The notes: a model not told the origin generated them from the sequence alone. Positions 1 through 7,411 are shown, counted from the first letter of the stretch. The stretch: DNA of 29,766 bases from a virus (IMGVR_UViG_2541047966_000011:1-29766), one strand, 5' to 3'. Numbers and translations are program-made.

Positions 1-534
1 ATGCTTACCCTGGACGAGATAGGTCAATCAGTACGTAACAATATCCAGTTGATTATTGATCATGTCGGCTTACCTCTTGCTGTTGGTCCGCTCAGTGATG
101 ATGATTACAAGATTCTGTGTGGTGGCTATGGTGAGCTTGAATGGGACTATGCGTTAAGTACCTATGGCAACTCCAGAGAAAAGTATGAGTTCTGCATAAA
201 ACTTGTTCAGCAAGGTCGGGTTCAGGGAATACCATCAGGAGCAGCAATTTGTGTTTATGGGGTTGAAGAAAACATCTTTCGTATCCATATGATCGAAAGG
301 TTTTCTAGAGAAGATGAATCTCACCCATTGAAAGGGCGCATGGTTTTACTCACTCTTATGAGTGCTTTTATATTTTGTAAAGCTGTTGAATGTAAAGTTG
401 TCCACATTGTAGAGCCAGTACCAGAACTGGTGCAGTATTACGAGTCTTTTGGTTTCCGCATGGAACAGTGCGGTTATGTGATGTCGGCAGTCATTGATGA
501 GCTGCAGGATATCTTTCTTAAATTTGCTCAGTAG
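1..534 (+). CDS. hypothetical protein in AT-rich cargo; C-terminus faintly resembles a GNAT-type acyltransferase motif (uncertain)
   Basis: ATG at position 1, so the ORF may extend upstream of the window. 177 codons, visibly AT-richer than the phage backbone. C-terminal LVQYYESFGF resembles GNAT motif B, but no clear motif A (Q/R-x-x-G-x-G/A) is visible. Confidence 0.45.
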   Translation: MLTLDEIGQSVRNNIQLIIDHVGLPLAVGPLSDDDYKILCGGYGELEWDYALSTYGNSREKYEFCIKLVQQGRVQGIPSGAAICVYGVEENIFRIHMIERFSREDESHPLKGRMVLLTLMSAFIFCKAVECKVVHIVEPVPELVQYYESFGFRMEQCGYVMSAVIDELQDIFLKFAQ

Positions 535-730
535 GTATAGACGAGAAGGGTCTACAAATTGTAGGATACCCGTCCAGATTACCTTAAAGGTACATCTATG
601 GCAGTCGTTTTGTGCTTAAACTACTAAGAAACGATGTCACCAATCGACATGATCGATTGGCATAAGTTAGCGAAACAAGCTAGCTTTAAAGAAAGGGTTA
701 GAGACGCCTTTACTGTCTCGGGAGTTTTCT

Positions 731-904
731 ATGAAAGATCAAAAAGCAACCAAGCCACAGGTTAAGTTCGACACAATGAAAGCATTCGCAGGTATGGGTG
801 CTGCTGTTGAAGTTCTGATGAAGGCTGCTCCTAATGCGTTCACTCACGCTACTGTCTCTGGTAAAGAGCAGCAGGGTAAGCTTCGTCGTCGCAAAGCAGC
901 ATGA
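731..904 (+). CDS. small lysine-rich hypothetical protein (57 aa)
   Basis: Not in the ORF track (<60 aa). ATG at 731 preceded by GGGAG at 719-723; translation MKDQKATKPQVKFDTMKAFAGMGAAVEVLMKAAPNAFTHATVSGKEQQGKLRRRKAA; stop TGA 902-904, followed 20 nt later by a terminator hairpin. Confidence 0.4.
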   Translation: MKDQKATKPQVKFDTMKAFAGMGAAVEVLMKAAPNAFTHATVSGKEQQGKLRRRKAA

Positions 905-923
905 TCATAGCTGGTGCTTTTTG

Positions 924-949
924 AAAACCCGCCTTTAGGCGGGTTTTTT
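924..949. terminator. bidirectional rho-independent terminator between convergent genes
   Basis: AAAACCCGCC-TTTA-GGCGGGTTTT: 6-bp GC stem flanked by an A-run and a T-run, so it reads as an intrinsic terminator on both strands. It lies between the plus-strand small ORF and the minus-strand PrtN-like gene. Confidence 0.6.
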
Positions 950-951
950 CT

Positions 952-1233
952 TTAGTGATGTTCTTTGCCCTTCTGTTTGCTTGTTCTGACCTGTTCCCAC
1001 TCGATACGTCCTTCTTCTCGTCTTTTGTCTATGTATTCCGCAAGATCCTGAATATTGATGCAACGTTTTGCTTTTTGTGATGTGCCGATGCGATATGTTG
1101 GAACGGGCAACTTACAAGCGTTTGCTTTTGCTTCTGCCGTGGCTGGACTCATGCCAAAGTACTTTTGGCTAACTGCTGAGAGTTCAATGTTAGGGGTATT
1201 GAATTCAGCCATCAGTAAAAACAAGGTGTTCAT
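952..1233 (-). CDS. PrtN-like (pyocin activator family) DNA-binding protein, possible excisionase-like regulator
   Basis: ORF-track frame 952..1260 opens with GTG. The internal ATG at 1233 (MNTLFLLMAEF...) has GGAG 6 nt upstream and matches the usual PrtN-family N-terminus as I recall it. Family assignment from memory. Confidence 0.55.
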   Translation of the reverse strand: MNTLFLLMAEFNTPNIELSAVSQKYFGMSPATAEAKANACKLPVPTYRIGTSQKAKRCINIQDLAEYIDKRREEGRIEWEQVRTSKQKGKEHH

Positions 1234-1269
1234 AATTTTCTCCATCAAAACCGGCTGCACCCGGGAAAA

Positions 1270-1842: not shown

Positions 1843-2633
1843 CACTTCACCTCCTGCGGCGGTTCCGGTAGCGGCATCCAGTGAGTTGCTTGCTCAATAC
1901 CATTACCCGGCTTAATCGTTGCATCTCCGCGCCGAAAGGTGCTTCCGGTATAGCGTGCGGAGCATATTAGCGGTTCAACCAGAGAGCTATCGAAATTCAC
2001 CGAAATAAGCACGTTCTGATTCTTTTCCGGCATTCGATCACTACAGCTTATCCAACTATCCGGAGTTCCCGGAGAGTTGCCATTTACATCGAAGTTTGGC
2101 TCTGCGTCCTGAACCAGGAGGATGTAACCATTCTTGGCAGTATCAAGTTCTAACGCCTCGGTGACGGTGCCGAAATAGCGATTACCTAAATCAGCATCAC
2201 AAGTGCTTACATCAATGGAAACTTCCATGCCCTCGATTAATTCTGGCAAGTTGTAAGTTTGGCTTACGGGTTCGGCTTCCAGTTCTGCTATGCGCTTTTT
2301 TGCTGCTTCCAGCTCAACACGCAGCTTCCCTACCGTTAGCGCAATTTCCTCGTTCTCCTGGTCGCGTGATTTGATGTATTGCTGGTTTCTTTCCCGTTCA
2401 TCCAGCAGCGCCTGCACTACTTCAGGGTTGAAAGCTGCGATATAACGAGCGTTGTTCTCTGCGTTTTTCTGTTCGTCGAATCCTGGCCAGTCGACAATAT
2501 CTCCGTGATGATTATCACCTGGTGTGTGTACGGCGTACGTGCCGTATTTGCCCGGCGAAATAAATGCGACCCATTCACCCTGTGTTGCCTTTTCTGCCGC
2601 ATCACGTAGCGCCTGATAATTAATTTTTCTCAC
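1842..2633 (-). CDS. Ead/Ea22-like protein with DUF551-like C-terminus
   Basis: 263 aa with a coiled-coil segment (ELEAAKKRIAELEAE) and a C-terminal W-x-PLPEPP-type region typical of DUF551 as recalled. GTG start preceded by GGAGG within the repeat CTCACTGGTTGCCTCCTTTGCGAA. Confidence 0.6.
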   Translation of the reverse strand: MRKINYQALRDAAEKATQGEWVAFISPGKYGTYAVHTPGDNHHGDIVDWPGFDEQKNAENNARYIAAFNPEVVQALLDERERNQQYIKSRDQENEEIALTVGKLRVELEAAKKRIAELEAEPVSQTYNLPELIEGMEVSIDVSTCDADLGNRYFGTVTEALELDTAKNGYILLVQDAEPNFDVNGNSPGTPDSWISCSDRMPEKNQNVLISVNFDSSLVEPLICSARYTGSTFRRGDATIKPGNGIEQATHWMPLPEPPQEVK

Positions 2634-3226
2634 TGGTTGCCTCCTTTGCGAAGCTCTGCAGCGAAATATACAGCTGCGGAAACAATAGCTGCATGTCGGT
2701 ATTCACCATCAGAAAATAAAGAATCTCCCTTAAGTGCATTGACGATACTCTGATGATTTTTTGCCAGCATCTCCACGCCCTGCGCCCGTACTTCAGCCAG
2801 AAAAGCATCGGTGGCTGGCATATTTCCTGTTGCCTTCATGTCCTCCAAAATAACCAGAACGCTATCTCGCCCAACCACCTCAGCGATAACCTCGGTGTTG
2901 TCGCCAACAACATCGCAGAATGCCTGAACTGCCTTACGAGCCAGCTCATTCTCCGCCGCAAGCGCCGAAAACTTCTCGTGTGCCAACTTAACAGCTTCAT
3001 CAGCCTGCTTAATTGACTCAATCGATTTCTGTTGGTCTTCGGCCAGCCCTGCTAAATCAGCCTCCAGTTCGGCCAGGCGTTCATTTAATGCATCTCGTTC
3101 ATCCAGTAGAGCCAGCACAACCTGAGGTGTGACTTTCATACGAAATGCCAGCAATTTTTGTGGTGTGGCTGCTATTTTTATTGCTTCTGCCGCCCCACGC
3201 AGTGCCTGATAGTCAATCTTGCTCAC
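2630..3226 (-). CDS. Ead/Ea22-like protein (paralog B)
   Basis: Shares N-terminal xxKIxYQALRxAAE with paralog A, and an internal ESIKQADxAVKLAHEKFSALAAEN block and C-terminal RKGGNQ with paralog C. Start set to the GTG at 3226 (VSKIDYQ), which sits in the same repeated RBS context as paralog A; the ORF-track frame extends to 3259. Confidence 0.55.
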   Translation of the reverse strand: MSKIDYQALRGAAEAIKIAATPQKLLAFRMKVTPQVVLALLDERDALNERLAELEADLAGLAEDQQKSIESIKQADEAVKLAHEKFSALAAENELARKAVQAFCDVVGDNTEVIAEVVGRDSVLVILEDMKATGNMPATDAFLAEVRAQGVEMLAKNHQSIVNALKGDSLFSDGEYRHAAIVSAAVYFAAELRKGGNQ

Positions 3227-3852
3227 TGGTTGCCTCCTTTGCGAATCTGTTCCGCCCATTCTTCAAGGGATTTCTCCGCATATTCACCGGACAGGCCATC
3301 AATCGGGTGCGGCTCATTAGCCAACTCTTCTTTCGCTGACAGAATCATGCGCGTAACGTCGAAAACTTCACGCAAAGACTTATTGATAAATCCGTGATTG
3401 AACGCAGCAGCAAGACGGCTGGCGGCATAATTAATCCCCTCGTTGCGTGCTTCCGCACGTACTTCAGCAAGGAAAGCGTCGGTGGCTGGGGTATTTTCCA
3501 TTAGTTTTTTTGACGTTGACCAAAGCGCGGAAAGCCACTCTTTATCAAACCATTTATCCTTATGGTGAAACATTTCATCAACTGTCTGGTGGCAGCGGGA
3601 TACCTCAAAAAGGCACCGCGCATTCTCCGCCGCCAGCGCTGAAAACTTCTCGTGTGCCAACTTAACAGCCGCATCAGCCTGCTTAATTGACTCAATCGCT
3701 TTCTGGTGGTCTTCGGACAGAGCCGAAATCTTGGCCTCCGCTTCAGCAAATTTACGCACCAGATATTCAGCATTTGTTTCATTCACTTTCAGATCTCGTG
3801 GTACACATTTCCCGCGAAGAAACCCTTCCATTTCGAAAACATTCATGCGCAT
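3223..3852 (-). CDS. Ead/Ea22-like protein (paralog C)
   Basis: 209 aa sharing internal and C-terminal blocks with paralog B. ATG at 3852 has GGAG about 8 nt upstream; stop overlaps the paralog B start (GTGA). Confidence 0.55.
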   Translation of the reverse strand: MRMNVFEMEGFLRGKCVPRDLKVNETNAEYLVRKFAEAEAKISALSEDHQKAIESIKQADAAVKLAHEKFSALAAENARCLFEVSRCHQTVDEMFHHKDKWFDKEWLSALWSTSKKLMENTPATDAFLAEVRAEARNEGINYAASRLAAAFNHGFINKSLREVFDVTRMILSAKEELANEPHPIDGLSGEYAEKSLEEWAEQIRKGGNQ

Positions 3853-5896: not shown

Positions 5897-6371
5897 AAAA
5901 AGAGCGGTACCAGCCGGAAGCAAGTGTACAAACTGGTACCGCCAAAGCAGTGGCTGTTGTGGTGACCGGTGCTGATCTCCGGCTTGCGGTTATTTCAGAC
6001 TCTCACGGGCGTTTAATTGCCCCGCCGAACAGCTCTTTTCCGCAATAGCTGCAATGTCTTTCGCGCATCAGCCTGCGCATTCACCACAACGCTGAGAGCA
6101 CTTAGCCAGTTACGGCACCACACTTTGTCGCGGTTCCATAAATGCCCTCATCGTTGCACCCTGGTCTCTTCCCAGGTGTCAAACCGAACCGCCACGCTGG
6201 TTAGGCGTCTTATCAGCATCATCATTGACTTGCACATTCCGGCTACCTGGTTTGTTTGCCCGAGCAAGGAGGGGATTGTCCCCTTTAACGTCCCCAGACC
6301 GCTAACGACGCATGTGCCATACGCCGTGTTACAACCAAATTTTGTTTAATCTTGCCTGTGACATGTTTCTT

Positions 6372-6407
6372 TTGGATACATTATGTATCTCATGGGTACA
6401 TTGCCAA
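6372..6407 (-). promoter_or_regulatory. candidate leftward early promoter (PL-like) overlapped by a palindromic operator
   Basis: On the minus strand: TTGGCA (plus 6402-6407), 16-nt spacer, CATAAT (plus 6380-6385). The perfect palindrome GATACATtATGTATC (6375-6389) overlaps the -10. Confidence 0.4.
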
Positions 6408-6410
6408 GTA

Positions 6411-6432
6411 TAAAAAAACCTGCCGAAGCAGG
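6411..6432 (-). terminator. intrinsic terminator downstream of the repressor gene
   Basis: Minus-strand transcript reads CCTGC-ttcg-GCAGG followed by TTTTTTTA, 14 nt past the repressor stop. Confidence 0.5.
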
Positions 6433-6445
6433 TTATAAATATTGA

Positions 6446-7120
6446 TTAGGCCTTTATTTTGTATCTTCTTGGTTTTCCTGAGAAAATTACTGTACCAATT
6501 ATAGAGCAATTACCGTTGATCTTAATGTAAGGTTCAGGCCAGTTTGGGTTTAATGCTTTGAGGTAACGCTGTGTTCCATCTTCTATCAACCGCTTAAAGG
6601 TGGTTTCGCCTGTATCGTGCATCAATGCAATAACGTCGTCACCGTGGCAGGCAGGGACTTCAGGATCTACAAAAATCATGTCTCCCGGGCGGTACTCATC
6701 AATCATTGAATCACCAATCACCCGCAAGATATAAGTCATTTCGCCACAGGGTACAGGGCAGGGATAAGTTTCTGCTGTGCTCAAATCAACCTCAGAATAG
6801 CCAACTTCTTTCCATGCTCCGGCCTGTACCCATGATATGACAGGGACTAACGTTATTTGTTTGTTAGTAATTGAAACATCAGGTTTTTTTGTGATGTTTG
6901 TTGTCTGGTGTTCTTGATCAAGCCATCCGACAGGCAGGTCGAAACATTTTTCGATGTGCCGTGCCATGCTGTCACCGATATTTTTAGTAGCACCATCTCC
7001 CATAAACCTGCTGGTCTGGGTTGGCTCGCGATCAATCATGGTGGCAAAGGAAGAATTCCCGCCAACACCATCTCTCAGTTTTCTGGCGTTAGACCGCCGG
7101 ATGTCATGGACTGTTTTCAT
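6446..7120 (-). CDS. CI-like prophage repressor with N-terminal HTH and C-terminal S24 (LexA-like) peptidase domain
   Basis: 224 aa. The C-terminal half contains GDSM (catalytic Ser context) and a downstream Lys, typical of S24 autocleaving repressors. Divergent from the Cro-like gene. No SD upstream of the ATG, so the mRNA may be leaderless. Confidence 0.85.
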   Translation of the reverse strand: MKTVHDIRRSNARKLRDGVGGNSSFATMIDREPTQTSRFMGDGATKNIGDSMARHIEKCFDLPVGWLDQEHQTTNITKKPDVSITNKQITLVPVISWVQAGAWKEVGYSEVDLSTAETYPCPVPCGEMTYILRVIGDSMIDEYRPGDMIFVDPEVPACHGDDVIALMHDTGETTFKRLIEDGTQRYLKALNPNWPEPYIKINGNCSIIGTVIFSGKPRRYKIKA

Positions 7121-7210
7121 AACGAAATTAAAACCTTTGTACCGATAGGGTACAAGTATCTTGAAGGTTCATCTCAATCATGTAATATGTATATCGGAGG
7201 TACATATTGT
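7121..7210. promoter_or_regulatory. divergent promoter and operator region between repressor and Cro-like gene
   Basis: 90-bp AT-rich gap containing the palindrome TTGTACC-gatag-GGTACAA (7137-7155), ATATGTATAT/TACATATTGTA-type motifs, and a candidate rightward promoter TTGAAG (7161-7166)-N16-TAATAT (7183-7188). Confidence 0.5.
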
Positions 7211-7411
7211 ATGAAAGCGTATTGGGACTCTTTAACCAAAGAACAGCAGGGCGAGTTGGCCGGAAAAGTTGGCTCAACACCAGGCTACTTACGGCTGGTT
7301 TTCAATGGTTATAAAAAAGCCAGTTTTGTGCTGGCTAAAAAACTTGAGCAATGCACGTCAGGTGCAATTACGAAATCTGACTTAAGACCGGATATCTATC
7401 CGAAAGATTAA
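7211..7411 (+). CDS. Cro-like HTH regulator (YdaS family-like)
   Basis: 66 aa, GGAGG 10 nt upstream of the ATG. C-terminal ...ITKSDLRPDIY matches the conserved YdaS-type tail as recalled. Divergent from the repressor. Confidence 0.7.
   Translation: MKAYWDSLTKEQQGELAGKVGSTPGYLRLVFNGYKKASFVLAKKLEQCTSGAITKSDLRPDIYPKD

Follow-up and report, generated by a model that had tools for sequence, protein, structure and literature searches.

Positions 1–950 of the window (by which we mean the whole 29,766-nucleotide stretch of viral DNA analysed here, IMGVR_UViG_2541047966_000011:1-29766) are a compact, horizontally mobile moron cassette made up of gp23, a structured spacer, gp24 and a terminator, as listed in Table 1. 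The two plus-strand ORFs of 177 and 57 residues that had been noticed in a preliminary description of the sequence were both confirmed. The region is 99.8–100% identical to gp23 and gp24 of phage mEp460, and 100% identical to pairs of CDS annotated as "hypothetical protein" in E. coli chromosomes. Comparison with 10 orthologous loci gave dN/dS values of 0.03–0.30 for the two genes, which indicates purifying selection. Because this selection is strong, we conclude that gp23 and gp24 are genes and not chance ORFs, and the possibility that they are untranslated, which the preliminary description had kept in view, is contradicted.

Table 1. Features of the cassette, its convergent neighbor, and the gene pair that takes the place of gp23 in sister prophages. 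Coordinates are window positions unless a locus is named.
Feature	Coordinates	Strand	Description
gp23	1..534	+	177 aa, acidic (pI 4.8); predicted GNAT-fold acyltransferase of an unclassified family
Spacer	535..730	+	196 nt, conserved structured RNA
Hairpin TAGAC..GTCTA	538-554	+	Spacer RNA element
Conserved ATTGTAGGAT	558-567	+	Spacer RNA element
Hairpin H2	579-592	+	Spacer RNA element
Hairpin H3	640-660	+	Spacer RNA element, covariation
Hairpin H4	665-685	+	Spacer RNA element, covariation
Hairpin H5	701-719	+	GAGAC-N9-GTCTC
gp24 Shine-Dalgarno GGGAG	720-724	+	Spacer RNA element
gp24	731..904	+	57 aa, basic (pI 10.5), single central helix
Intrinsic terminator	923..948	+	Closes the cassette; 3 nt from the convergent xis stop
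PrtN-family excisionase (xis)	952..1260	-	Context outside the cassette; last gene of the early-left operon, convergent with the cassette
Panacea pair replacing gp23 and spacer RNA	L011 1986-2974; L012; L116, L117 1473-2461		Sister dusA prophages

The cassette is AT-richer than the phage backbone, as had been noted by eye. Its GC content is 43.1%, compared to 51.0% for the window, and a value this low is found in just 1.2% of 950-nt windows (sd 3.8%); GC3 is 0.38–0.39 in gp23 and gp24 and 0.45–0.64 in backbone genes. The sole other stretch of comparable composition, at about 6300–7350 (42.5–43% GC), overlaps a minus-strand ORF of 224 residues (6446–7120) and may be the repressor region. The minus-strand gene adjoining the terminator, described earlier as PrtN-like, matches Pfam PF11112 (PyocinActivator/PrtN, E = 4e-23), in agreement with that description, and the PrtN-like gene of mEp460 is annotated as "excisionase". 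Further along the early-left operon are two tandem Ea22-like paralogues of 209 residues on the minus strand (2630–3259 and 3223–3852), whose ORFs overlap by 37 nt and which share a central ...SIKQAD.AVKLAHEKFSALAAEN... block, PATDAFLAEVRA, and a C-terminal RKGGNQ.

The gene order in mEp460 is tail fibre, dinI, int (minus strand), a 340-nt gap, gp23 and gp24 (plus strand), and xis (minus strand). Alignment to the prophage junction of E. coli O157:H7 PV15-279 identifies the gap between int and gp23 as attP, carrying a phage copy of the dusA 5′ end. At attL, five phage codons and a TGA are fused to the promoter region and initial 35 codons of the host dusA, and identity to the phage is perfect from ATGCTCGAT onwards, approximately 150 nt 5′ of the gp23 ATG. 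The cassette is therefore the first element inside the left prophage end, between att and xis. The intact dusA promoter and 35 codons of the host are directed into it. As no predicted intrinsic terminator separates gp23 from the truncated dusA′ ORF, transcription from the host promoter could plausibly run into the cassette once the phage has integrated. The true attL core within the dusA 5′ end lies, together with the candidate −10 box of the cassette and the 5′ UTR, roughly 35–150 nt outside the window.

The preliminary description had allowed that the larger ORF might continue beyond the left edge of the window. Extension upstream, in mEp460 and in an E. coli chromosome, reveals an in-frame TGA 12 nt 5′ of position 1, so gp23 is complete; it can be lengthened by no more than one extra ATG codon, which has a worse Shine-Dalgarno spacing than the ATG in the window. 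Many IMG/VR prophage contigs start exactly at the gp23 ATG or 3 nt before it (L030, L034, L039 and others), and this suggests that the left edge of the window is a boundary set by gene calling or prophage calling, and not a biological end.

Alignments show a TAnAAT sequence that is invariant across contexts, 33–36 nt 5′ of the gp23 ATG, and reads TATAAT in E. coli. This is a candidate −10 box, recognized from its conservation: a consensus promoter scan upstream of gp23 made no call, and there is no good −35 element. At the other end, the terminator has an 11-bp stem with six GC pairs, followed on the plus strand by TTTTTTCTTT and on the minus strand by four T. It had been described as bidirectional; the strong plus-strand terminator stands, while bidirectionality is partial. 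An equivalent terminator is found 3′ of the small gene in Citrobacter, Edwardsiella, Shewanella and other distant loci. The earlier suggestion of an independently expressed module is in keeping with these two borders, the putative conserved −10 box and the intrinsic terminator.

The pair occupies very different positions in different phages. It adjoins attL(dusA) in E. coli and Salmonella; in prophages of Citrobacter, Enterobacter, Edwardsiella and Hafnia, among others, it directly follows the Q antiterminator, with the lysis genes on its far side; and in Photorhabdus it is set midway along a myovirus tail/baseplate operon. Across these contexts, homology starts approximately 90 nt 5′ of the gp23 ATG and ends at the terminator. 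The presence of the pair in at least three unrelated positions in different phage backbones gives good support to the view of the preliminary description that this is accessory cargo. In some of these places the neighbors are genes of the defence or competition type, including a RelA_SpoT/CapRel-like gene, an N6_N4 methylase, and a cloacin with its immunity gene. In Hafnia (L118–L120, approximately 1000–2110), the cassette after Q adjoins a gene of 319–352 residues with a RelA_SpoT domain (toxSAS/CapRel-like), and in one Enterobacter locus (L021) a cloacin-type bacteriocin and immunity gene are located a few kb upstream.

The pairing of the two genes is strict. A gp24 homologue lies downstream of the gp23 homologue in each of the 108 loci fetched, and even at 26% identity no gp23 homologue examined lacked a downstream partner of 50–58 residues, which generally ends in K/Q-A-A. 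The small gene always follows the GNAT gene, separated from it by a spacer of 81–197 nt. Four distant lineages retain the arrangement: Shewanella (36% GNAT identity), a dusA-int island (47%), a P2-like prophage end (32%) and an integrase island (26%). In these, an ORF of 50–56 residues begins 81–163 nt after the GNAT gene; its last three residues are KAA, QAA or AKA, and a terminator comes next. The distant partner in L112 is acidic, so complementarity of charge between the two proteins is not universal.

Within complete E. coli genomes the relationship is asymmetric. We found gp23 in 361 records (358 genomes), and at least 80% of the 950 nt is likewise present in 361 records, whereas gp24 is found, always at full length, in 566 records (562 genomes). 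The complete cassette is thus present in 6.6% of these genomes and gp24 in 10.4%. There are 205 records (36% of carriers) in which gp24 occurs without gp23, and no complete E. coli genome was found with gp23 and without gp24: the dependence is one-way, gp23 relying on gp24 and not the reverse. Moreover, gp24 is kept next to xis in every E. coli dusA-type prophage found (562 genomes), and within this lineage it behaves almost like a backbone gene. Carriers of the cassette include O157:H7, O111 and APEC strains, and also Salmonella, Enterobacter, Citrobacter and other Enterobacterales.

In the gp24-only loci that we examined, the space upstream of gp24 is taken by a protein with a SocA-like Panacea domain (PF13274, E = 2e-19) and a protein of 128–139 residues, which from their sequences are probably a PanA-type toxin-antitoxin pair; the two gave no match in PADLOC. 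In loci of this type, homology to the window begins exactly at the gp24 Shine-Dalgarno sequence. E. coli NR3736 (L116, 2814–3848) carries in addition a 344-residue CoiA-like "competence protein" gene between gp24 and the PrtN-like xis, so the slot takes further cargo. The preliminary description had proposed a cargo hotspot between integrase/excisionase and the early genes. The hotspot is borne out, because the gp23 part is swapped for a Panacea pair in sister prophages, but its placement needs correcting: the slot runs from att to xis, and int lies beyond attP.

The spacer is folded more stably than expected, with a minimum free energy of −58.6 kcal/mol (z = −3.2 to −3.5 relative to shuffled sequences). 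In 20 diverse spacers of the Enterobacteriaceae type, analysed with RNAalifold and by counting pairs, 94.8% of the cells are paired, compared to 20–40% when the partners are slid. Six pairs have compensatory changes on both sides, and H3 and H4 keep their pairing; the covariation score was reached by none of 500 shuffles. A covariance model matches 538–733 at 156 bits and nowhere else in the window, and its matches are confined to the Enterobacteriaceae clade. No significant structure was found in spacers from Edwardsiella, Photorhabdus, Shewanella and distant loci, and the RNA is therefore not universal to the cassette. Rfam 15 contains no family matching 535–730, the sole matches being below threshold and located on the terminator (853–956).

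Two elements of the spacer are invariant in all 33 Enterobacteriaceae-type sequences: TAGAC at the gp23 stop (538–542), and GAG[AG]C-N6-10-GTCTC directly 5′ of the gp24 Shine-Dalgarno sequence, where the loop varies in length and sequence. TAGAC and GAG[AG]C/GTCTC may offer alternative partners for pairing, or else be bound by a protein. A model of translational coupling in which TAGAC pairs with GTCTC was not supported, as masking a ribosome footprint at the gp23 stop did not open the gp24 start: in partition-function folds of the 33 spacers, the mean unpaired fraction at the gp24 initiation region went from 0.42 to 0.39, with controls at 0.43. A 43-residue ORF within the spacer (634–765) was rejected as a gene; it is not conserved and contains stops in the Citrobacter orthologue, and the hairpin covariation is found there instead. 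Most simply, the spacer RNA is a clade-specific leader that sets the expression of gp24.

A non-coding RNA of similar length has been published from the same type of prophage. This is sRNA-17, an ArcA-modulated sRNA of 193 nt from E. coli K1 RS218, which its authors placed in an mEp460-like prophage (Sun 2020; PMC7719688). It is, however, a different RNA from the spacer: the supplementary alignment of that paper gives an exact 30-nt match to the plus strand of the window at 5935–5964, which locates sRNA-17 in the early region, approximately 5 kb from the cassette.

Structure prediction models gp23 over its whole length as the mixed α/β fold characteristic of GNATs, in which a β-strand core is combined with α1–α2 and with the acyl-CoA module β4-α3-β5-α4, and its matches among viral structures are likewise GNATs. 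The preliminary description was therefore right to see a likeness to GNATs, but in reporting a faint C-terminal motif it put the case too weakly. The conserved residues are W48, H96, E99, the H108-P-L-x-G-R/K-M loop, E138 (within IVEPV) and Y147 (within YYESFGF); W48 is the same in all members of the family, and Y147 in nearly all. Y147 and E138 correspond in position, as we see it, to the Tyr and Glu that serve catalysis in RimI-type enzymes. Motif A is degenerate. It reads H108-P-L-K-G-R-M, invariant in the close family, and retains from the consensus Q/R-x-x-G-x-G/A the last Gly only; the loop aligns to HRGHGVGRAL of nourseothricin acetyltransferase.

In sequence searches gp23 had no match in Pfam or NCBIfam at E ≤ 1 and nothing significant in the PDB, and its sole match in the sequence libraries was PHROG 4350, listed there as of unknown function. 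The best PDB sequence matches of the family profile are nourseothricin acetyltransferase (E = 0.011) and an AAC(6′). One of 62 family members touches PF00583 (E = 0.006), and the distant members are without Pfam matches. A full-library profile search placed the family in 85 clusters at 50% identity among 1.84 billion representatives. On the basis of its modeled fold, gp23 is a member of a new, uncurated GNAT family.

The AlphaFold2 model of gp24 has a single helix, residues 15–32 (pLDDT 63), within the sequence FDTxKAFAGMGAAVEVLMKAAP, and disordered tails rich in Lys and Arg; the protein ends in ...RRRKAA. Homologues with 59–98% identity are found across the Enterobacterales, and the protein corresponds to PHROG 2741, again of unknown function there. 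No match was found in Pfam or NCBIfam at E ≤ 1, nor any RHH/DUF1778 or other DNA-binding domain, and a sequence search of the PDB gave nothing significant. The PADLOC-DB v2 defence models have no match at E ≤ 1 to gp23, gp24 or the 43-residue ORF, neither gp23 nor gp24 is named in the databases, and literature searches by accession and by topic returned nothing on these genes. Synonymous divergence in the same pairs of loci (L013, L008) is far lower for gp24 than for gp23, for example 0.08 compared to 1.5 in the comparison with Salmonella. Either the cassette is itself a mosaic whose two parts join in the spacer, or additional constraint at the nucleotide level acts on gp24.

We tentatively favor a function as an effector and its antagonist, that is, a toxin-antitoxin-like module serving prophage addiction or abortive-infection defence. 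In such a module gp23, as the effector, would use acyl-CoA to modify a cationic target (a basic protein or else an amine), and gp24 would be its dedicated antagonist or partner. Being oppositely charged, largely disordered and possibly labile, gp24 would restrain gp23 in the lysogen; the pair would be expressed from the prophage, and the structured spacer would tune the synthesis of gp24 relative to that of gp23. Several observations point this way. The one-way dependence of gp23 on gp24 is an asymmetry typical of a toxin and its antidote, a probable toxin-antitoxin pair is swapped into the same slot, and the neighbors elsewhere include cargo of the defence and competition type. The predicted GNAT fold has Tyr147 and Glu138 of catalytic type, its best PDB matches are acetyltransferases of cationic antibiotics, and the net charges of gp23 (−10) and gp24 (+7.6) are complementary. 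The mobility of the cassette, its defined borders, the obligate pairing and the geometry at attL are all consistent with such a role, and we speculate that the conserved C-terminal K-A-A of gp24 may be a degron or pseudo-substrate. Against such a role, the pair departs in defining features from the GNAT toxin-antitoxin systems already described, and the acidic partner in L112 is an exception to the complementary charges. The survival of gp24 alone in a third of E. coli carriers fits an independent function of gp24 equally well.

A more elaborate form of the effector-antagonist proposal, which we consider rather a long shot, is that the cassette represents a new two-component toxin-antidote or abortive-infection system. 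The acidic GNAT would attack a basic protein of the cell or of a phage, and not tRNA; a labile gp24 would act as pseudo-substrate or inhibitor, with K-A-A as degron or active-site plug; the leader RNA would set the level of antidote; and the whole would be a portable moron that at dusA is wired to the host promoter.

The main competing explanation, somewhat unlikely in our judgement, is that gp23 is a lysogenic-conversion enzyme with a helper. It would acetylate a host protein or a cationic small molecule (a polyamine, an aminoglycoside or streptothricin-like antibiotic, or a peptide) to the benefit of the lysogen and without toxicity, and gp24 would be a positive cofactor, a substrate-recruiting subunit or a regulator, and not an antagonist. 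However, this leaves unexplained why gp24 remains intact and conserved where a toxin-antitoxin pair replaces gp23. In addition, GNATs of the resistance type normally act alone, and the similarity of gp23 and gp24 to known proteins is below every curated family threshold.

Three further explanations are less likely than either an effector with its antagonist or a conversion enzyme. The genes might be two independent morons that happen to be linked, gp24 being a stand-alone xis-proximal gene (for example a small regulator or an inhibitor of a host factor) and gp23 separate cargo inserted upstream. The 205 of 566 E. coli records with gp24 and without gp23 are in keeping with this, as is the finding that gp23-type and Panacea-type loci become homologous exactly at the gp24 Shine-Dalgarno sequence, and the lower synonymous divergence of gp24 implies that the histories of the two genes can differ. 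We nevertheless regard independence as improbable, given that the two genes have been carried together into three or more unrelated contexts, that co-occurrence among the fetched loci is complete, and that the pair is kept in Shewanella, in a P2-like prophage and in other islands at 26–47% GNAT identity with nothing else shared.

More doubtful still is an anti-defence module, in which gp23 would acetylate a host immune protein with gp24 as accessory factor. A predicted GNAT fold in a phage accessory locus would suit such a role, and there is a precedent in AcrVA5, a GNAT anti-CRISPR that inactivates Cas12a by acetylation. Against it, the position at attL, reading on from a host promoter, and the retention of the cassette in heavily decayed prophages such as that of O157:H7 PV15-279 indicate a function expressed in the lysogen and not during infection; there is no HTH gene of the Aca type, and the PDB searches showed no similarity to AcrVA5. 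Finally, that these are conserved backbone genes or untranslated ORFs is scarcely credible in view of the strong purifying selection on both ORFs, the deviant base composition, the other positions in unrelated phages and the replacement by other cargo in sister phages, even though gp24 is always next to xis in E. coli dusA-type prophages; the backbone alternative raised in the preliminary description is thus contradicted for the cassette and retains some force for gp24 within the E. coli lineage.

Whichever function applies, the small uncurated GNAT family, its obligate mini-protein and the conserved structured RNA offer three cloneable parts. A defence or addiction module would add a class of non-tRNA GNAT effector to prophage immunity, and would show plainly that the end of a prophage can be wired to a promoter of the host, that of dusA; a plain modifying enzyme would make the cassette an ordinary moron.

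Among the known systems with which the pair can be compared are the type II GNAT-RHH toxin-antitoxins (TacAT, AtaRT, KacAT, ItaRT). In these the antitoxin gene is upstream of the toxin and adjacent or overlapping, whereas the partner here is downstream and 80–200 nt away. Their antitoxins carry an RHH/DUF1778 domain, which is lacking in gp24, modeled as a single helix in 57 residues. Unlike the tRNA-binding GNAT toxins, gp23 is acidic, which makes aminoacyl-tRNA an unlikely substrate, and it matches no Pfam GNAT or toxin model. The differences in gene order, spacing, partner fold and GNAT charge place gp23–gp24 outside the known GNAT-RHH family.

The PanA-PanT pairs fill exactly this slot between attL and gp24 in sister E. 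coli prophages (Lys8385Vzw, SKA5 and those of about 200 complete genomes), with the same gp24 and terminator behind them. They have no relationship to gp23 in sequence or fold, and show the type of cargo that the slot takes and not the identity of gp23. Among acetyltransferases, NatD/Naa40, RimI, Ard1, nourseothricin acetyltransferase and AAC(6′) have 8–16% identity to gp23, with no family threshold reached; they differ from it in motif A, which in gp23 is reduced to H-P-L-x-G-R/K-M, and none has an obligate 57-residue partner gene.

Morons are extra transcription units inserted between phage backbone genes. Like those of lambda (bor/lom) and HK97/HK022, the cassette is an apparently autonomous unit with deviant composition, its own putative −10 box and a terminal terminator, and it is present in some members of a group (mEp460 type) and absent or replaced in others (Lys8385Vzw, SKA5). 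It is found beside att, in the interval from Q to the lysis genes and inside the tail operon, all of them classic moron sites. It differs from typical morons in that its two genes form a fixed unit and are separated by a long structured RNA spacer, and in having a poor −35 element, the promoter being recognized by its conservation. The general kind, a moron with a GNAT enzyme, is therefore familiar; what is unusual is the combination of a new GNAT family, an obligate 57-residue partner and a dedicated structured RNA.
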